From Spirochaetia bacterium (GTDB taxonomy: Bacteria > Spirochaetota > Spirochaetia > CADAEX01): 10,678 bases of DNA. A model generated the notes under the pieces. It had not been told where the DNA came from. It saw nothing but the letters and a program-made list of their open reading frames with translations, and made no database searches. How positions within the stretch are numbered: the first letter of the stretch is position 1; the number at the start of each line of letters is the position of its first letter. Positions 1,658 through 9,239 of the stretch are shown here, in pieces. The DNA is taken from positions 1-10,678 of the forward strand of contig CAXXHA010000002.1 of NCBI GenBank assembly GCA_963662265.2. Reading direction: 5' to 3'. The translations under genes were made by a program, and so were the position numbers.

Positions 1658-2110
1658 ATGCTTATGAAAGATAATGAACTCGGGCCAGTGGTAATAGGGA
1701 AATTGATGAATATCGGGGGGATGCTGCAGCGGAAAGCAAATAAATTGCTTTATCCGGTAGGTTTAAATCAGCAGCAGTTCTCCATTTTATTTGAAATAAG
1801 AAAAGCTGAAAGAGTAAGTCAAAAGTCGATGGTTAACCGTCTTGTGCTGGAAAAGGCACATGTTTCAAAAATAATCAGTAAACTGCATAAAATGGAACTG
1901 ATAGTGATTGAACCTTCTAAGGAAGATAGGCGTTCTTCGTGGATATCTATAACTCCCAAAGGAATAGAAACTGTAACACAATGCAAGGAAATCTTTGCAG
2001 AATGGAATAAGGAATGGATAAACAAAATGGATAAAAATGATTGCATATCCATGATTGATAATTTATCAGTTCTTCAGAATATTCTTAAAGAAGATATTCA
2101 AAACGATTGA
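1658..2110 (+). CDS. MarR-family transcriptional regulator
   Basis: 150 aa. 'GLNQQQFSILFEI', winged HTH 'KAHVSKIISKLHKMELI' and wing motif 'EDRRSSWISITPKG' (DRR...TxKG). Confidence 0.95.
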   Translation: MLMKDNELGPVVIGKLMNIGGMLQRKANKLLYPVGLNQQQFSILFEIRKAERVSQKSMVNRLVLEKAHVSKIISKLHKMELIVIEPSKEDRRSSWISITPKGIETVTQCKEIFAEWNKEWINKMDKNDCISMIDNLSVLQNILKEDIQND

Positions 2111-2172
2111 TCATTATCAGGAATAGTAAAAGAAAATTAAAAGGTATTATTTAAACAAAATTGGAGGATAAA

Positions 2173-2586
2173 ATGGAATTAACTCAAAAAGAAATAGAAC
2201 AGATAAAAGAAGATGTTAATTTGAAATTCAACGAACTGGTTGAAGCCAGCAAATCACTGGATTTCGACCGGTACATGGAATTCATCGACAGGGAAAACTT
2301 CTTAGGTCTGAACCCGGATGGAAGCGTTCTTCATTCAGGAGAAGAACTGGCACAGATATATAGGCCTGGTTTCTCAATGATGGAAAAAATAGAATCACTG
2401 GAATTCAATAAGGTTAAAATAAATGTAATTAATAAAACTACTGCAGTATTGGTTAATGAGTTTAATGACTGTACCAGGTTGAAGAATGGTGAGAAATATT
2501 CAAGTGAAGGGGGAGGCCTTCAGGTATGGTCGCTGAAAAATGATTCCTGGAAATTAGTAAGTATTTCAAGCAGTAATAAACAGTAA
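2173..2586 (+). CDS. NTF2-like/SnoaL-like (DUF4440-type) protein
   Basis: About 137 aa: N-terminal helix, 'LDFDRYMEF', 'NPDG', and C-terminal strands 'QVWSLKNDSWKLVS', typical of the NTF2 fold. ATG 2173 follows GGAGG (2163-2167). Confidence 0.8.
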   Translation: MELTQKEIEQIKEDVNLKFNELVEASKSLDFDRYMEFIDRENFLGLNPDGSVLHSGEELAQIYRPGFSMMEKIESLEFNKVKINVINKTTAVLVNEFNDCTRLKNGEKYSSEGGGLQVWSLKNDSWKLVSISSSNKQ

Positions 2587-2594
2587 TAATTTAT

Positions 2595-3200
2595 ATGGAA
2601 ATTGAAATAAAACCCTACTGCAGCAGTTTCTATAATGATGTTCTCACACTCTTCAACAATGCATTCGGAGATAAGTTTGCCTGCATCATAAAAGATGAGA
2701 ATAAGAGAAAAGAGTTTTCTCATGATGCAGGTTTTGTCTATAACAGGTGTTTTCCCGGCAACCTGATAGCTGTCATGGATAATAAACTTTACGGATATCT
2801 CTGGCTTGATTACAAGGGGCAGAACAAGGGAAAACATGTTTTTAACAGCAATATACTCAAGATAATAAAAAGATACGGGCTTTTTAAATGTGTAAAAGGT
2901 CTTATGCTTGCTGTTGTATTTGACTACACTCCTGTTGAAGATGAACTCTATATCGAATCAGTTGCTGTAGCTCCCGAATCACGGGGTATGGGGCTTGGTA
3001 CAAAATTCCTTGAATATGCGGAAAAGTTTGCAATGGACAGGGGTTTTAAGAACATTACTCTTCATGTGATTGAGGAAAACAGCAGGGCAAAGAAGCTGTA
3101 TGAAAGGTTCGGATTTGAAACAGTCTCTGTTTTTTATTCAAAGTTAACAGCTTCAGTTACAGGGCTTAACAGGGTTTATTTCATGAGGAAAAATATATAA
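2595..3200 (+). CDS. GNAT-family N-acetyltransferase
   Basis: Motif A 'LYIESVAVAPESRGMGLGTKFL' (RxxGxG) and motif B 'LHVIEENSRAKKLYERFGF'. It starts 8 nt after the upstream stop. Confidence 0.95.
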   Translation: MEIEIKPYCSSFYNDVLTLFNNAFGDKFACIIKDENKRKEFSHDAGFVYNRCFPGNLIAVMDNKLYGYLWLDYKGQNKGKHVFNSNILKIIKRYGLFKCVKGLMLAVVFDYTPVEDELYIESVAVAPESRGMGLGTKFLEYAEKFAMDRGFKNITLHVIEENSRAKKLYERFGFETVSVFYSKLTASVTGLNRVYFMRKNI

Positions 3201-3282
3201 ATATTAAATACACTTTTTTAAACATAAATAACACTATATTCTGATTAATTGAATGTATTTTATCTGTAAATTATTCTTCAAA

Positions 3283-4005
3283 TTATCTTTTATTTATACA
3301 TAAACTTCCCTGGTATTTATCAAGCAGACTAATAATTCTGTTCCTGACCGATATCATTTCAGGAGACTGCAGGTTATTCTGTTTCTGAGTTTTGTTTATT
3401 CTGAACTCTTCAAGTATTGATGCAGGATTTTTACCCAGCACAATAATTCTGTCAGCCAGTATTAAAGCTTCGTCTATTTCATGAGTTACATAAATGAGAG
3501 TACGCTTTTCATATTCTATTAAACTCAGAATACTGTTTAGAAGATTCATTCTCAGGCTGTAATCCAGTGATTTAAGCGGTTCATCCATAAGCAGCAGTTC
3601 CGCAGGATAAAAAAATCCCCTTGCGATTGATATTCTCTGTCTCATCCCGCCGCTGAGCTGATCAGGTTTGTATTTTTCAAATCCTTCAAGATCAACAAGC
3701 TTTATTAGCTTTTTCAGTTCCGACCTGTCAGCGCCTGGATTAACAATTGATATGTTATTCTCTGCATTTTCCCATGGGAGAAGCCTGTCCTCCTGGAAAA
3801 CGTAACTTACCTTGTTGAAGTTGCGGTATACAGATCCGTTTGAAGGCTCAAGATTTCCCGATATCAGATTTAAAACTGTTGTTTTTCCGCAGCCCGAAGG
3901 ACCAATAATGCATATAATTTCCTCTTTATCTATGTTCAAAGAAAGATCAGAGATAATATTTCTTTCATTGAATGACAGGTTTATATTTTCCAGTTTAACT
4001 ATCAT
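3283..4005 (-). CDS. NitT/TauT-family ABC transporter ATP-binding protein
   Basis: Walker A GPSGCGKT, 'VFQEDRLLPW', signature LSGGMRQR, Walker B LLLMDEP, H-loop VTHE. The likely start is ATG 4005 (MIVKLENI), overlapping the permease end by 11 nt. Confidence 0.95.
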   Translation of the reverse strand: MIVKLENINLSFNERNIISDLSLNIDKEEIICIIGPSGCGKTTVLNLISGNLEPSNGSVYRNFNKVSYVFQEDRLLPWENAENNISIVNPGADRSELKKLIKLVDLEGFEKYKPDQLSGGMRQRISIARGFFYPAELLLMDEPLKSLDYSLRMNLLNSILSLIEYEKRTLIYVTHEIDEALILADRIIVLGKNPASILEEFRINKTQKQNNLQSPEMISVRNRIISLLDKYQGSLCINKR

Positions 4006-4744
4006 TTTTTCCCACCAGTTTTCCAGCGCCATGCTGAGTCAAAATACAGAATATGATTATTATCAGTCCAAGAGAGAAGACTTTTTCAGTTTCAAGATTC
4101 ATTCTTGCCTCTGTCAGCAATGCTCCGATTCCTGTCCCTGCCGAGAGCACTTCTCCCATAACAAGCATTTTCCAGCTTAATCCAAGCATTATTATCAGTC
4201 CTGATTTTAAATAATTTATAAGGGAAGGAATAATAATTTTGAATATTATTCTTGTTCTTGAAAACCTGAATGTATGTCCCATCTCTATGAGTTTGGGATC
4301 AATATTTGCAAAGCCTTCACAGAGATTGACTGAAAGAATAGGGAAGGAAACAACAGTTACTATAAAGATTGTGGCTTTACCGTTCAGGCCGAACCATATC
4401 ATTGCCAGTGTTATATACAGAATAGGGGGGATACTCTGAAGAAGATATATAACCGGCGATATAAAATCCTTAAGCGGTTTTATAATTCCCATCAATAGGC
4501 CGAATGTAATTCCCAGTATCAGCGACAGCGACAGTGCTGTTAAGAGTCTGATGCAGCTGACAATAAGCGCATTATAAAACACAATATCCCCGAGACTGTT
4601 AAAAAGACTCTTTAAAGTCATCATTGGTCCCGGAAGTATCACTGCATTATAATGCATTGAAGTTATCTGCCATAAAAAAATAATTACAAATACTGTAACC
4701 AGTTTTTTTATTCTGTATTTTGATACAATAAATCTATTTTTCAT
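3995..4744 (-). CDS. NitT/TauT-family ABC transporter permease
   Basis: Multiple hydrophobic segments, 'ILPGP', 'LQSIPPI...WFG', and EAA-like loop 'LIEMGHTFRFSRTRIIFKIIIPS'. It overlaps the SBP gene by 11 nt. Confidence 0.95.
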   Translation of the reverse strand: MKNRFIVSKYRIKKLVTVFVIIFLWQITSMHYNAVILPGPMMTLKSLFNSLGDIVFYNALIVSCIRLLTALSLSLILGITFGLLMGIIKPLKDFISPVIYLLQSIPPILYITLAMIWFGLNGKATIFIVTVVSFPILSVNLCEGFANIDPKLIEMGHTFRFSRTRIIFKIIIPSLINYLKSGLIIMLGLSWKMLVMGEVLSAGTGIGALLTEARMNLETEKVFSLGLIIIIFCILTQHGAGKLVGKNDS

Positions 4745-5726
4745 AATTCAGGTAAAAATCATCTGCCGGAAGTTTTCCTCCGATAACTGCCGGTTTCATA
4801 CTGCAGAGAAGTTCAAAGTATTTTTCCACATCAGCTCTGATTTCATCCGGCTTTTTGAATACTAAATTTAATTTATCTATTGAGCCTGCAATAAGATCTG
4901 CTGGTGCATTTATATGTTTTTCTGCAAGTTTACCTGAGAGCTCTGTATTTTCAGAAACAGTATTTACAGCTTCTGCGAAAGCGCTGTTAAATTCTGTTAA
5001 GAAAGGGATACCTCTTTCCATTGCGCTTGTTTTTGCTATCATACAGAATCCCGGCATTTTATATCCGTTCCCTGCAATTTGTTCCCAGTCGCTGCAGTAT
5101 TCGCTTATAATTCTGTAGTTTTTTAAAGATTTTCTGTGAGCTGTTACAAAAGGCTGAACATCGACAGCATATGAAATACTGCCCTGAGAAAGAAGCTGGG
5201 CTATTTCACTGTGATTTGAATACACAATCTTTAAATCCTTTCTTGCTGTAAGTCCGTGTTTTCTCAGGAAAAGCTGTGTTGTCATGTCAGGTACCGAACC
5301 TCTTGAAGGTACATAGAGTACTTTTCCTGCCAGATCTTCCCAGCATCTGCAGTTCTGATCTGTTGTGCTCAGAAAAAGGCCTCCCCATTGAAAAACATTC
5401 ATCAGTTTTATATCAAAATTCTTGTTGAAAAGTATTGATGCTGAGTTTGAAGGCAGGAGAATAAAATCAACATCGTCTGACTGGGCAAGAGCCATCATTG
5501 CTTCCATGCTTGTATATACTTTTACTTCAACATCAGGAATATCTGATTTTTTATTTTCCTGAAGCCTGAATGCTGGCAGTATTACAGGTGAACGGGGACC
5601 TGCTATAACAATTTTATTATCAATTTTTCTGTCGTTCGTTTTTTCCAGGTTTTCACTGTTCCCTGCTGAGTAAACAAAACTTGTGAATATTAATAAAACA
5701 GCTGTAAGTATTATTATTTTTTTCAT
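4734..5726 (-). CDS. NitT/TauT-family ABC transporter substrate-binding protein
   Basis: Signal peptide MKKIIILTAVLLIFTSFVYSA, PBP2-type 'WEDLAGKVLYVP...PD' motif, and SD AAGGAG. It is the first gene of the ABC operon. Confidence 0.92.
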   Translation of the reverse strand: MKKIIILTAVLLIFTSFVYSAGNSENLEKTNDRKIDNKIVIAGPRSPVILPAFRLQENKKSDIPDVEVKVYTSMEAMMALAQSDDVDFILLPSNSASILFNKNFDIKLMNVFQWGGLFLSTTDQNCRCWEDLAGKVLYVPSRGSVPDMTTQLFLRKHGLTARKDLKIVYSNHSEIAQLLSQGSISYAVDVQPFVTAHRKSLKNYRIISEYCSDWEQIAGNGYKMPGFCMIAKTSAMERGIPFLTEFNSAFAEAVNTVSENTELSGKLAEKHINAPADLIAGSIDKLNLVFKKPDEIRADVEKYFELLCSMKPAVIGGKLPADDFYLNYEK

Positions 5727-5766
5727 TCCAACTCCTTGTTATATTATAAATTAATACAATCTAAAC

Positions 5767-5795
5767 TTGTTTTACAAGTCTAAGTAGTTTAAGAT
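5767..5795 (+). promoter_or_regulatory. Candidate sigma70 promoter of the Crp/Fnr gene
   Basis: TTGTTT (5767-5772), 17 nt spacer, TAAGAT (5790-5795). Confidence 0.4.
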
Positions 5796-5810
5796 GATTA
5801 ACGGAGGCTA

Positions 5811-5832
5811 AACAGTATCTGGAGATACAGTT
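5811..5832. promoter_or_regulatory. 22-bp palindrome, candidate binding site of the adjacent Crp/Fnr regulator
   Basis: AACaGTATCT-GG-AGATACaGTT has 9 of 10 arm positions symmetric and lies between the divergent ABC operon and the crp gene. Confidence 0.65.
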
Positions 5833-5834
5833 AT

Positions 5835-6521
5835 TTGAAAATTATGGAAAAAATTATTACTGTTCTGCTTGAATGCAGATTGTTTTCCGGATTGAATAGG
5901 GCTGAATTAATTAGTTTACTCAATACGCTTGAATATAAAACTCATACCTATAAAAAGGGTGATTACCTGATGAGGATGGATAAACCATATCCGTATATAT
6001 CTGTAATACTGAATGGAACTGTAGAAATTCACAAACAACTTACAAACGGTAACCGTTTATGTATTGAGATACGAGACAGCGGAGAAATGTTTGGAGGGGC
6101 TGTTGTATTTGCACCTGATGGAAAAGAAACAGGTTGTGAAATTATTGCAAGATCAGCAGGTTCTCTTTTTCAGCTTTCAAAATCCAATGTCAATAAGATG
6201 CTTGCTGAGTGTCCCCGGGCAGGGCAAAACCTCAATATGATATTTTCAGAAAGAGTTATTACATTTCAGAAAAAAATGGAGCTTTTAAGTTATTCATCCA
6301 TTAAACAGAAAATTGCTTTCTACTGCAGAAATTTTATAAAACCCGGCAAAGACGGTATAATGCAGCTTCCTTTTTCAAAATCCAAATGGGCCGAAGTCAT
6401 GAATATTTCCAGACCCTCATTGATGAGAGAACTGAAGAGTCTGGAAGATGAAAAATCTCTTATTATAAACAATGACAGAACTATCAGCTTAGATAACAGT
6501 CAAATAGATAAATATCTTTAG
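5835..6521 (+). CDS. Crp/Fnr-family transcriptional regulator (HcpR-like)
   Basis: cNMP-binding beta-barrel 'YKKGDYL...ILNGTVEI...GEMFG', then 'SIKQKIAFY' and HTH 'FSKSKWAEVMNISRPSLMRELKSL'. The start is TTG 5835 (GGAG at 5821) or ATG 5844. Confidence 0.95.
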   Translation: MKIMEKIITVLLECRLFSGLNRAELISLLNTLEYKTHTYKKGDYLMRMDKPYPYISVILNGTVEIHKQLTNGNRLCIEIRDSGEMFGGAVVFAPDGKETGCEIIARSAGSLFQLSKSNVNKMLAECPRAGQNLNMIFSERVITFQKKMELLSYSSIKQKIAFYCRNFIKPGKDGIMQLPFSKSKWAEVMNISRPSLMRELKSLEDEKSLIINNDRTISLDNSQIDKYL

Positions 6522-6570
6522 AATGATGTGAAATAAACAGACGATTCAATCAGAATCAGTTTTGTTTTGA

Positions 6571-7581
6571 TCAATGTAAATTTTGAAGCTTCAGTGAATG
6601 CCCCTTGTCTTTGCTTACTGTTCTTCCGGCCCTGTTTAAGACATTTTTAGCTTCTTCCACTGATACATAACGTTTATTTGTTGTAATCTGAAACTCATAT
6701 TCTATCTTATCTGTTCTGCTCTTAAGAAAAGGATTACAGTTAGGCATTATAACATTGGCTCCCCCCTGAGTAAGCGCCCTGTACTGACCGTTATCAGGAT
6801 CAAGAGTCGCAACTGTGTTGGCTGCCGCCATATGAGTATTGCCTGTGACAATTCTTGTAAGCGCAAAAACCCTCAGAAGCAGATCAAAATCACCTGAAGG
6901 TTCATCTTTAAGCGGTGTTTGGGCATGGGGGATAAAGGGACCGATATTTATCATGTCAGGCTGGAAGTCCTGGAAAAACAGTATATCATCTGCAAGGTCA
7001 TCAATAGTCTGTCCCGGTAATCCTACTATATTTCCTGTTCCCACCTGGTAACCTGTTTCTCGTAACATATTGATTGCATTGATCCTGTCTTCAAGCTCCA
7101 GGCCTGAACGCATTTTCTTATAGAGTTTCGGATTCATTGTTTCATGTTTCATCAGGTAGCGCTCAGCTCCGGCATCTCTGAATGCTGTCATATCATCACG
7201 GGAACGTTCTCCAAGGCTCAATGTAACAGCTATATCTGAATTATCCCTGATGCGCTTGATAACAGAACTCATCACATCACGTGTAAAGAAAGGATCTTCA
7301 CCAGACTGAAGTACTACTGTTTTCAATCCGCTTTCTGCGATAGCCTGTGCTGTATCCACTATTATATCCTCAGTCATTCGAAACCTTTTGCAGTCTTTAT
7401 TGTCTCTGAGGAGACCGCAATAAAGGTCATTGCACCTGCAATAGCTTGAGAAGTGGATTACTCCCCTGAGCTGAGCTGAGTCGCCTAAATGTGTCTTTCT
7501 TGCCCTATCAGCTTCGGAAAAGAGTGATTCCTGATTTTTATCATCACGCAGATAGTCAATAATTGTTTTCTTGTTCAACAT
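6571..7581 (-). CDS. HydE/BioB/PylB-family radical SAM protein, closest in motifs to [FeFe]-hydrogenase maturase HydE but with an atypical cluster motif
   Basis: 'LRGVIHFSSYC', 'TVVLQSGEDP', 'TLSLGER', 'AGAERYLMKHET', 'VGLPGQT', 'IGPFIPH..TPL' and 'GANVIMPN' are HydE-type blocks. The motif reads CRCNDLYC rather than CxxxCxxC, so the hydE symbol is withheld. SD GAAAGG lies upstream. Confidence 0.9.
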   Translation of the reverse strand: MLNKKTIIDYLRDDKNQESLFSEADRARKTHLGDSAQLRGVIHFSSYCRCNDLYCGLLRDNKDCKRFRMTEDIIVDTAQAIAESGLKTVVLQSGEDPFFTRDVMSSVIKRIRDNSDIAVTLSLGERSRDDMTAFRDAGAERYLMKHETMNPKLYKKMRSGLELEDRINAINMLRETGYQVGTGNIVGLPGQTIDDLADDILFFQDFQPDMINIGPFIPHAQTPLKDEPSGDFDLLLRVFALTRIVTGNTHMAAANTVATLDPDNGQYRALTQGGANVIMPNCNPFLKSRTDKIEYEFQITTNKRYVSVEEAKNVLNRAGRTVSKDKGHSLKLQNLH

Positions 7582-7625
7582 TTGTGTTACCTTTCTGAAA
7601 ATGTATTCACTGTTATCTTTACTGA

Positions 7626-7654
7626 ATGATAAGAATAATGATATTGGAGGTCAA
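7626..7654 (-). promoter_or_regulatory. Sigma70 promoter of the HydE-like gene
   Basis: Minus strand TTGACC (7654-7649), 17 nt spacer, TATCAT (7631-7626), about 45 nt upstream of the ATG. Confidence 0.65.
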
Positions 7655-7900
7655 TGACTTAAGCAAGAAAAATAGTAAAAACTGAGAATATTAGACCAGT
7701 AAAATGCGGGGTGTGATTTTTAATTTTTTCATGTATAATAAAGAATTGTAAAACAATTAAAATATTTTTAATATCTTGAATATGATTATTTCATCAGCAG
7801 AAATTGTTTTATTAACTTTAAAAGTGGAGGTAATTCTTGTAAATCCGGTATTTTGCTGTAACAGAACTGTATAAAAACTGGAAAACAAGAATGAAATAAT

Positions 7901-8284
7901 ATGAATGAATTAAAATCCGGAATTAAACACAGGATCGAATATACTGTTAAACCTGAAGATTCCGCAAGCAGCTATGGATCAGGGCTTCTTGAAGTTTTTG
8001 CAACACCTGCTATGATTGCGCTTATGGAAAAATGTTCCATGGAATGTGTTCAGGAACATCTTTCAGAGGGATACGGGACTGTCGGCACTCTGGTAAATAT
8101 AAAGCATCTTAAAGCTACAAAAATAGGCAAAGTTGTAACTGCAGAGAGTTATCTTACCCTGGTTGACGGCAGACGACTTGAGTTTGAAGTCAATGTCTAT
8201 GAAGATAATGAATCTGTCGGCAGTGGTAGCCATGAGAGGTTTATTATCAACAATAAGAAATTCCTTGAAAAGATTGGAATGTAG
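7901..8284 (+). CDS. Hotdog-fold thioesterase, fluoroacetyl-CoA thioesterase (FlK) family
   Basis: 'VFATPAMIALME', 'TVGT..NIKHL.AT..G', 'VDGRRLEF' and 'G.HERFII'. Thr35/Glu43/His69 have the same spacing as the FlK Thr42/Glu50/His76 triad. Confidence 0.93.
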   Translation: MNELKSGIKHRIEYTVKPEDSASSYGSGLLEVFATPAMIALMEKCSMECVQEHLSEGYGTVGTLVNIKHLKATKIGKVVTAESYLTLVDGRRLEFEVNVYEDNESVGSGSHERFIINNKKFLEKIGM

Positions 8285-8322
8285 GGGGAGAGGCTGGTTC
8301 CGGCAGACAATTTTAAAATTAA

Positions 8323-8955
8323 ATGAAAAATATTATAAGGAATATAAGTAAACATTCTCATTATCCATTGTTTTATCCACTAATGATGAGTGAAGATGAA
8401 AAAAAATTATTTGATGATACAATAAAACATTCAAAGAATTATCTCGAATATGGGTTGGGGGGAACTACTTTGCGCAGCATCCAGAAATCAGGGGCAAATA
8501 TTTTTTCAGTTGATACGAGTGAAGCATGGATTGAATATATGCGTCAGTATTTAATTATTAAAAAGAATGAGAATAAAAGGTTATCTATTTTTTATCTGGA
8601 TATTGGTCCAACGAGGCAGTTTGGATACCCAGTTTCAACAAAGAATAAATCAAGTTTCCCCTTATATTCATCAGATATTTTTAAAAGGATAGATAAAGAT
8701 ATAATAGATCTTGTTATGATTGACGGCAGGTTCAGGGTTGCATGTACATTGAAAATTATAATTGAATGTTACAGTAATCCGGAACTGAGGATCTTGTTTC
8801 ATGATTTCTGGGACAGGCCGCAGTATCATATACTGCTCAAATATCTGGATACAATTGATGCAGCAGATACATTAGGTTTGTTTTCAATAAAAAAGGCCCC
8901 TGATCCGGATGAACTGGCACAGGATTATGAAAAATATAAATATAATCCGTTTTAA
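8323..8955 (+). CDS. Hypothetical protein, class I SAM-dependent methyltransferase-like fold
   Basis: Motif I 'YLEYGLGGTT', 'FSVDTSEAW', 'DLVMIDGRFRVAC' and 'ILFHDFWDRPQY'. Confidence 0.75.
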   Translation: MKNIIRNISKHSHYPLFYPLMMSEDEKKLFDDTIKHSKNYLEYGLGGTTLRSIQKSGANIFSVDTSEAWIEYMRQYLIIKKNENKRLSIFYLDIGPTRQFGYPVSTKNKSSFPLYSSDIFKRIDKDIIDLVMIDGRFRVACTLKIIIECYSNPELRILFHDFWDRPQYHILLKYLDTIDAADTLGLFSIKKAPDPDELAQDYEKYKYNPF

Positions 8956-9066
8956 ATAATGAAGCTCCTATACCGGGTCATAAAATTCTGTTTTGATTCT
9001 GTCTTAATAACGTCACTCCCTTGTAATATTTCAATTTCAGCAATATATTATACATAATATAAATAC

Positions 9067-9095
9067 CGGTTTTCTGATAAAGAAAACTGTTGTTT
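9067..9095 (+). terminator. Hairpin with T-rich tail: possible intrinsic terminator, or operator next to the S1 promoter
   Basis: CGGTTTTCT (9067-9075), loop GATAA, AGAAAACTG (9081-9089), followed by TTGTTT. Confidence 0.4.
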
Positions 9096-9118
9096 GCAGA
9101 AAGTCATGATTATATAAT
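9090..9118 (+). promoter_or_regulatory. Sigma70 promoter of the S1 gene
   Basis: TTGTTT (9090-9095), 17 nt spacer, TATAAT (9113-9118). Confidence 0.6.
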
Positions 9119-9239
9119 ATAGATGCAGATCAGAAGCGCTTCAGTATGACAGTAAAACAGAAATCTGCCAGTTATAGTTGAGAATCAGTAAACCAGTCTG
9201 CATCACTTATAAAAATATATATCCGGAGTAAATAGCAAA

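Follow-up and report, generated by a model that had tools for sequence, protein, structure and literature searches.

The window analysed here, 10,678 nucleotides read on the forward strand from a Spirochaetia bacterium (assembly GCA_963662265.2), is the whole of a 10.7-kb contig (CAXXHA010000002.1) belonging to a genome of 3.77 Mb and 90.6% completeness. At 6571-7581, on the minus strand, it carries an intact open reading frame (ORF) of 336 aa encoding a homologue of HydE (P0001), a protein with the fold of the radical S-adenosylmethionine (SAM) enzymes. The encoded protein is full-length and belongs to a distinct clade, monophyletic and derived from HydE, in which aspartate takes the place of the middle cysteine of the cluster motif.

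Three cysteines in the arrangement CX3CX2C are the hallmark of radical SAM enzymes, one iron of the cluster being left free for SAM. HydE converts the product of HydG, [Fe(Cys)(CO)2(CN)], through attack of the 5'-deoxyadenosyl radical on sulfur, and the upper pocket of canonical HydE holds this cysteinyl-Fe complex. In the window the motif occupies 7417-7440 on the minus strand, where the in-frame codons from 7440 to 7417, TGC AGG TGC AAT GAC CTT TAT TGC, give C48-R-C50-N-D52-L-Y-C55; the two outer cysteine codons lie at 7440-7438 and 7419-7417, the aspartate codon GAC at 7428-7426, and the codon of an extra loop cysteine, Cys50, at 7432-7434. When aligned by phmmer with HydE of Thermotoga maritima (TmHydE), C48, D52 and C55 correspond to C63, C67 and C70, and C50 falls opposite a lysine. 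An earlier note on this DNA had read the same residues from the same codons, and had pointed out that GAC is two bases away from TGC, such that a single miscall would not suffice; both the frame and the two-base difference are as described, and the same codons recur in a second sample (see below).

Family and fold

P0001 scores 278.9 bits against TIGR03956, the NCBIfam equivalog for HydE (cut-off 254.6; 279.3 bits in the genome scan), and matches the TmHydE sequences of the Protein Data Bank (PDB) at E 1e-83 with phmmer. The general radical SAM family PF04055 is matched at 64.5 bits (gathering threshold 29.5) over residues 54-201 and profile positions 13-164, with the motif region outside the alignment. 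The model predicted by AlphaFold2 (AF2), in which cofactors are not modelled, is a (beta-alpha)8 barrel with a predicted local distance difference test score (pLDDT) of 94.5; it superimposes on ten TmHydE entries with template-modelling (TM) scores of 0.91-0.92 and root-mean-square deviations of 1.4-2.0 A, with 42-43% of the structurally aligned residues identical. PylB and BioB have the same radical-SAM barrel (TM 0.86 to PylB 3t7v and 0.79-0.80 to BioB), but identity to them is about 20% and the scores against their hidden Markov models, 140.4 bits for PylB (cut-off 348.2) and 85.1 for BioB (cut-off 225), are far under the cut-offs. The assignment to HydE made by the earlier note therefore holds at the level of profile and homology, and also in the structural comparison with T. 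maritima HydE that it had proposed. What is absent is the defining CX3CX2C of HydE and of radical SAM enzymes at large, just two of the three canonical cysteines being present in P0001.

No fusions involving the clade were found, proteins of 589-2000 aa giving six matches at E<=1e-60 that are 35-42% identical and lie outside the clade. Long open frames joining the clade gene to a gene resembling the large subunit of NiFe-hydrogenase (locus L020; genome G418) were considered and not accepted as fusions.

The Asp52 clade

Homologues were sought among sequences clustered at 90% identity, where 8000 candidates were scored and the best 120 listed. Among these 120, identity to the query is 58-80% as far as P0083 and 50% or less thereafter; P0087, a 232-aa fragment bearing the clade motif, is 63% identical over 68% of the query. 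Four short sequences (P0077, P0079, P0083 and P0087) were excluded and the remaining 116 were aligned with the genome's own canonical HydE, giving 117 full-length sequences, with aspartate at position 52 in 79 and cysteine in 38. To avoid circularity, the clade was set by two other signature residues, His43 (7453-7455, minus strand; E58 in TmHydE) and Asn255. The 80 sequences with both residues are monophyletic (support 1.0) and 79 of them have Asp52; the sole exception, P0080, has Cys52, and no cysteine at 49 or 50. His43 accompanies Asp52 in 79 of 79 sequences, and 37 of 38 Cys52 sequences have the canonical glutamate, the exception again being the clade member P0080.

The substitution has been maintained under selection. 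Position 52 is covered in 27 named genome loci, all with an aspartate codon (GAC in 17, GAT in 10), and the ratio of non-synonymous to synonymous substitution rates (dN/dS) could be estimated for 157 of 378 pairs, those with dS<2, and stays under 1 in every one (median 0.17, maximum 0.47); between the window and the named loci it is not estimable, dS being saturated in 27 of 27 pairs. An exhaustive search of 50%-identity representatives, from which the query and the best 150 were aligned (151 sequences), returned the three-cysteine pattern in 144 and a missing N-terminus in five. Cys-Asp-Cys is confined to the query and P0062, the sole 50%-identity representative of the whole clade among the best 150, a distribution that is more than chance. 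The Asp variant is real, selected, and restricted to a single compact branch within HydE.

These results leave virtually no probability that Asp52 is a sequencing or assembly error, or a mutation private to one genome. Logan contigs from four runs, representing two samples and two studies, cover 6400-7765 of the window. Two of the four match the window exactly, and the window may derive from them; the pair from the second sample shows 10 differences, comprising seven synonymous and three non-synonymous changes (A27V, M149R and D194E), none of which lies within 7417-7440. Error was ruled out by these contigs, in which the codon at 7426-7428 that the earlier note would have had re-read is unchanged, together with the aspartate codons in 27 of 27 named loci, and a private mutation is contradicted by Asp52 in 79 of 80 clade members. 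The earlier note had supposed an unusual but real subfamily, which would fall if close homologues all carried Cys52, and had suggested an alignment of homologues with estimates of dN/dS; the close homologues have aspartate, written with either of its codons, and every estimable pair shows the expected constraint. The second sample's contigs (X4 and X5) track the window over 6400-7765, beyond which their sequence is unlike it, and hence the upstream neighbourhood of the gene differs between the two strains.

Conserved and altered residues

The clade retains the SAM-binding motifs QSGE, TLSLG, RYLxKHET and GxGNIVGLPGQT, with 84-100% conservation; the first of these (Q92-S93-G94-E95, the 'GGE' motif, at 7297-7308 on the minus strand) is 95-100% conserved. 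C48, Y54 and C55 are invariant in an alignment of 34 clade members (A1). Passages of two papers on TmHydE name as cavity residues R54, T134, R155 and T269, which contact the CN ligands (PMC11826987), along with M224 and M291 (PMC10114646; the full set PMC11826987, PMC10114646). With the numbering transfer anchored on M224 and M291, the equivalents of R54, T134, R155, M224 and M291 (R39, T120, R141, M210 and M279) are invariant in the clade, and that of T269, among the contacts named in the same passages (PMC11826987), is Asn255 in 80 of 80 members.

Comparison with TmHydE (PDB 3cix, 3iiz and 5few) thus combines a common fold, SAM motifs and five cavity residues with a series of clade-wide differences. 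Besides C67 to Asp52, which converts CX3CX2C to CX3DX2C, these include E58 to His43; a histidine to Arg158; P266, T268, T269 and A270 to A252, A254, N255 and T256, of which the triplet A254-N255-T256 (6814-6822, minus strand) occupies columns separating the clade from canonical HydE; a hydrophobic residue at 294 (W294 in TmHydE) to Cys282 (6736-6738, minus strand); T295 to Asn283; a four-residue insertion at 285-288, after strand beta8; and a block of C-terminal positions. The clade alignment contains no conserved C-terminal cysteines for an auxiliary cluster, in which it differs from canonical HydE. The SAM machinery and the lower 'product' pocket therefore appear to have been kept, and the upper pocket to have been rebuilt.

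Candidate cluster ligands

Within the cluster loop no residue but Asp52 is a universal candidate, and its lone exception is cysteine itself; Asp52 behaves, therefore, as ligand positions tend to. The most economical reading is Cys/Asp/Cys ligation with the Asp52 carboxylate as third protein ligand, a proposal for which, judging from the sequences, we regard the prospects of being right and of being wrong as evenly poised. The protein would then still bind a [4Fe-4S] cluster and SAM, Cys49 or Cys50 would assist at most, and HydE-like radical chemistry would be directed at a substrate other than HydG's cysteinyl-Fe(CO)2(CN) complex. Precedent for carboxylate-iron ligation exists in Pyrococcus furiosus ferredoxin, Bacillus subtilis Fnr and the NB-protein of dark protochlorophyllide reductase, [4Fe-4S] proteins that likewise have aspartate at a cysteine position of the cluster motif; yet all of them lie outside the radical SAM enzymes, and we know of no radical SAM cluster with an aspartate ligand. 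Two observations weigh against Asp52. The clade has other cysteines that could be the true third ligand, with one at 49 or 50 in 73/80 members and Cys282 in 80/80, and P0080 has Cys52 and Cys282 together.

The extra loop cysteine lies at position 50 in 54 of the 80 members and at 49 in 24, with both in five and neither in seven. It might complete a shifted triad (C48, C49 or C50, and C55), leaving Asp52 a non-ligand with a role in hydrogen bonding, acid/base chemistry or tuning of the potential. The prevalence of the extra cysteine agrees with this, as do the enrichment of Cys50 (54/80 in the clade versus 4/37 at the +2 position of canonical HydEs) and the circumstance that P0080, the lone Cys52 member, has neither Cys49 nor Cys50. 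However, six of the seven members without them retain Asp52 (P0025, P0034, P0058, P0068, P0081 and P0082), as do the genome loci L033 (CRHDD) and L039 (CISND); the extra cysteine wanders between +1 and +2; Cys49 also occurs in 17 of 37 canonical HydEs that have an intact CX3CX2C; and Asp52, at 79/80, is far more conserved than either. A shifted triad is consequently unlikely in our view.

Cys282 is present in 80/80 members as against 5% of the 37 canonical HydEs, and its column is cysteine in just 3 of the 151 sequences aligned from the best 50%-identity representatives. It lies three residues past the M291 equivalent, at the top of, or just past, strand beta8, adjacent to strand beta1, which leads into the cluster loop (secondary structure by DSSP on the AF2 model), and could conceivably substitute for the lost cysteine as a remote ligand. 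We consider this distinctly unlikely: strand alternation may point the side chain away from the barrel interior, P0080 keeps Cys52 as well, and the adjoining N283 and the 285-288 insertion are also remodelled, which is compatible with a role in the substrate pocket.

Still less probable, by a little, is a non-radical scaffold or pseudo-enzyme that has no SAM-cleaving cluster and instead carries or chaperones a metal fragment. Loss of one canonical ligand would fit such a role, as would the Pfam radical-SAM match that begins only at residue 54, skipping the motif, and a lower pocket kept beneath an altered upper one; but C48, Y54, C55 and all of the SAM motifs vary little or not at all among sequences 57-76% identical, which would be unexpected if cluster and SAM were dispensable. 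The earlier note had set out these alternatives without choosing among Cys/Asp/Cys ligation, a shifted CxCx4C set and a pseudo-enzyme. On the comparative evidence the first would be the most economical, and both others are weakened, the shifted set by an additional cysteine whose place varies, that is missing from 7/80 members and that is common in canonical HydEs, the pseudo-enzyme by the retention of every SAM-binding motif.

Genomic setting in sulfate reducers

A scan of species-representative genomes located 28 named loci with the clade gene, from Desulfovibrionaceae, Desulfobacter, Desulfospira, Desulfofervidaceae, Thermodesulfatator and Thermodesulfobacterium. A NifH-like gene is directly downstream in 28/28, its match starting no more than a few bases from where the clade-gene match ends in 26, and is followed by two NifE/N-like genes (PF00148) in 26/28, the two misses being contig ends. 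Directly upstream in 19/28 is a gene resembling the large subunit of NiFe-hydrogenase; HydF, too, often occupies that position. Genes within 8 kb include HydF at 14 loci, an aspartate-ammonia-lyase-like (AspA-like) gene at 12, HypD at 11, an [FeFe]-hydrogenase at five and HypF at four. Adjacency to HydF and AspA-like genes is a likeness to canonical HydE, since, according to a passage of PMC11736057, hydE is often found next to both.

The partner proteins belong to their families at a distance. The NifH-like protein scores 249 bits against PF00142 and 277 bits against TIGR01287, under the cut-off of 394, and conserves both cluster cysteines. The NifE/N-like pair scores 97 and 91 bits against PF00148 and is far under every curated Nif/Bch cut-off (NifE 31-44 bits against 505; BchN 34 against 324). 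The large-subunit-like protein reaches 320 bits with PF00374 and 247 bits with the NiFeSe family (cut-off 600). In one such gene (L018:6091-7908) and 13 relatives (among loci L016-L043), the N-terminal metal motif keeps only one cysteine and one histidine, DPCxxC is retained at the C-terminus, and a small-subunit gene was noted beside none.

The arrangement resembles the NifB/NifH/NifEN system of nitrogenase cofactor assembly in pairing a radical SAM enzyme with a NifH-type ATPase and a NifE/N-type pair. It differs in that the radical SAM partner is HydE-derived, in that the PF00148 proteins are far under the Nif/Bch cut-offs, and in that none of the Nif-like partners was found in the genome of the window.

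Co-occurrence with HydG and hydrogenases

The coupling to NifH/NifEN-like genes is one difference from canonical HydE; another is that HydG is mostly absent from host genomes. Five sulfate-reducer genomes inspected individually all possess an [FeFe]-hydrogenase, have the clade gene as their sole HydE match above cut-off, and lack HydG above cut-off (0/5). Of 151 sampled genomes from the family Desulfovibrionaceae, 83 of which are HydA-positive, 18 carry the clade gene; HydA is found in 18/18 of these, HydG is missing from 15/18, and there is no other HydE match in 11/18. Of the 65 HydA-positive genomes without the clade gene, canonical HydE occurs together with HydG in 41 and HydG is missing from 21. 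An alternative route of [FeFe]-hydrogenase maturation in organisms without HydEFG is held to be probable in a passage of PMC11216029.

We propose that, in sulfate-reducing Desulfobacterota/Thermodesulfobacteriota, the clade protein would work with the downstream NifH-like and NifE/N-like proteins, and that the set would constitute a HydG-independent route to an organometallic iron cofactor. Stated in full, the clade would be the radical-SAM part of an undescribed pathway in which the [2Fe] subcluster of [FeFe]-hydrogenase, or a new organometallic iron cofactor, is built with HydF, a NifH-like ATPase and a scaffold of NifE/N type, often joined by a NiFe-large-subunit-like protein; its SAM cluster would be Cys/Asp/Cys-ligated, the first such, and the window gene a single transferred piece of the pathway. 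We offer this full scheme tentatively and doubt that every part of it is correct; the HydG-independent assembly route taken by itself is a proposal that we hold just as tentatively.

Several observations tell against the pathway. The link to [FeFe]-hydrogenase maturation is suggested by gene neighbourhood and co-occurrence, and for the latter Fisher's exact test gives p 1.4e-4, a value overstated because related genomes are not independent. At the thresholds used, 15 of the 83 HydA-positive genomes (G407, G408, G422 and 12 others), all of unstated completeness, have no HydE, HydG or clade match, and a missing HydG is therefore not specific to the clade. Three of the 18 clade genomes have HydG and canonical HydE, and four of the 18 have a second HydE match near a HydA. 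G402 contains a divergent HydE-like gene (L067:1486-2484; 198 bits, under cut-off) with the canonical motif CTRQCTYC, flanked by an AspA-like gene and HydF, with a HydA close by and the Asp-clade/Nif-like operon approximately 10 kb away, and this gene could be the working HydE there. Lastly, the genome of the window itself has no NifE/N-like or NiFe-large-subunit-like match, and the NifH-like queries recovered from it only P-loop proteins at 25-28% identity.

The gene in its spirochaete host

The host genome encodes a canonical HydG-HydE pair (motif CRKNCTYC), a HydF with an AspA-like neighbour, and four HydA-like genes. The Asp52 gene has no copy above 42% identity in 30 close relatives, and there is no match at E<=1e-90 in 400 other genomes of the class. 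The best named matches, among the best 120 of 8000 candidates, are 77% identical, and the GC content of the gene is 43%, as against 32-38% around it. Its neighbours in the window are a convergent Crp/Fnr-type regulator, an ABC transporter, a FlK-type thioesterase and a 210-aa ORF, none of them from the clade's usual operon. The most economical account is that the gene was probably acquired horizontally from a Desulfovibrionaceae-like donor.

A mis-binned contig was rejected as an explanation, since the ends of the window match two genomes of the same genus (G001 and G002) at 80-89% DNA identity; its central part (approximately 2100-9200) has no substantial DNA match in these two genomes. The S1-domain gene of the window has homologues 62-69% identical that are labelled Spirochaetia, Sediminispirochaetaceae or Oceanispirochaeta by their sources.

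It is quite conceivable, though on balance we doubt it, that the gene serves no function in this spirochaete, being a horizontally acquired passenger that lacks its partners and is decaying. No Nif-like or NiFe-large-subunit-like partners were found in the host genome, the canonical HydE adjoins HydG, the gene was not found in the 400 other genomes of the class, and the second sample's contigs diverge just upstream of it, at 7765. Two further observations would fit decay, and count against a working enzyme here. M149R (window 7136) in the second sample alters a position that is methionine in 97% of the clade; it is present in one contig per run, at depths of 5.7 and 2.8. P0077, the closest homologue (80% identical), has a called length of 264 aa, starting at the equivalent of Met69, and so is without the cluster motif; it is probably a syntenic, possibly truncated copy from a related spirochaete, and may signal decay in the spirochaete lineage. 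Set against this, the ORF in the window is intact and deviates at only three of the columns conserved at >=95% in the clade, where clade members range from 0 to 10, and the differences from the second sample are synonymous by seven to three, so that the window copy appears to be still under constraint. P0077 and P0275, a homologue of the S1-domain protein, are each about 80% identical to the corresponding window proteins and putatively lie on the same contig, which suggests long co-residence with the host.

Other features of the window

A promoter-like site, TTGACC-17-TATCAT, lies at 7626-7654 on the minus strand, and a Shine-Dalgarno-like AGAAAGG at 7590-7596, 8 nt ahead of the ATG. Both had been taken in the earlier note as the gene's own expression signals, and both are there; the promoter is a match to consensus only, sites of this kind being no commoner in the region than in shuffled sequence (four observed, 4.9 +/- 1.9 in shuffles). 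No terminator-like site was found within 6400-8000, and no Rfam family reaches its gathering score anywhere in the window. The FlK-type thioesterase gene occupies 7901-8284 and is followed by the 210-aa ORF (8323-8955, plus strand), which has no Pfam family at E<=0.001. An intergenic repeat of approximately 86 nt at 1011-1096, with at least 24 matches listed in G001 and G002, folds better than 200 of 200 shuffles (z -2.6) and has no Rfam match.

Discussion

The central proposal of the earlier note, an unusual and real subfamily, is supported by our comparison, which adds two things beyond its view: the status of the window gene as an orphan paralogue and the Nif-like setting of its relatives. 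Whether the subfamily is already characterised, which the note had left open, is answered within the scope of the search: a full-text search of the literature, to which most subscription journals are external, found no description of an Asp-variant HydE, of a CX3DX2C motif or of a HydE/Nif-like operon, and the clade members appear at NCBI under the label HydE. The possible mechanisms seem to have been narrowed, while the orphan status of the window copy and the putative character of the function temper what the gene may offer to the radical-SAM and hydrogenase fields.

Conservation of aspartate at the middle position across a whole clade would widen the coordination chemistry known for the SAM-cleaving cluster and, if true, a Cys/Asp/Cys SAM cluster would be the first among radical SAM enzymes. 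There is also a consequence for annotation: the clade proteins pass the HydE equivalog cut-off despite alteration of a defining residue and of residues in the pocket. Maturation of [FeFe]-hydrogenases without the full HydEFG set is raised as an unresolved matter in a passage of PMC11216029, and the setting of the clade bears on how organisms that lack the full set mature these enzymes.

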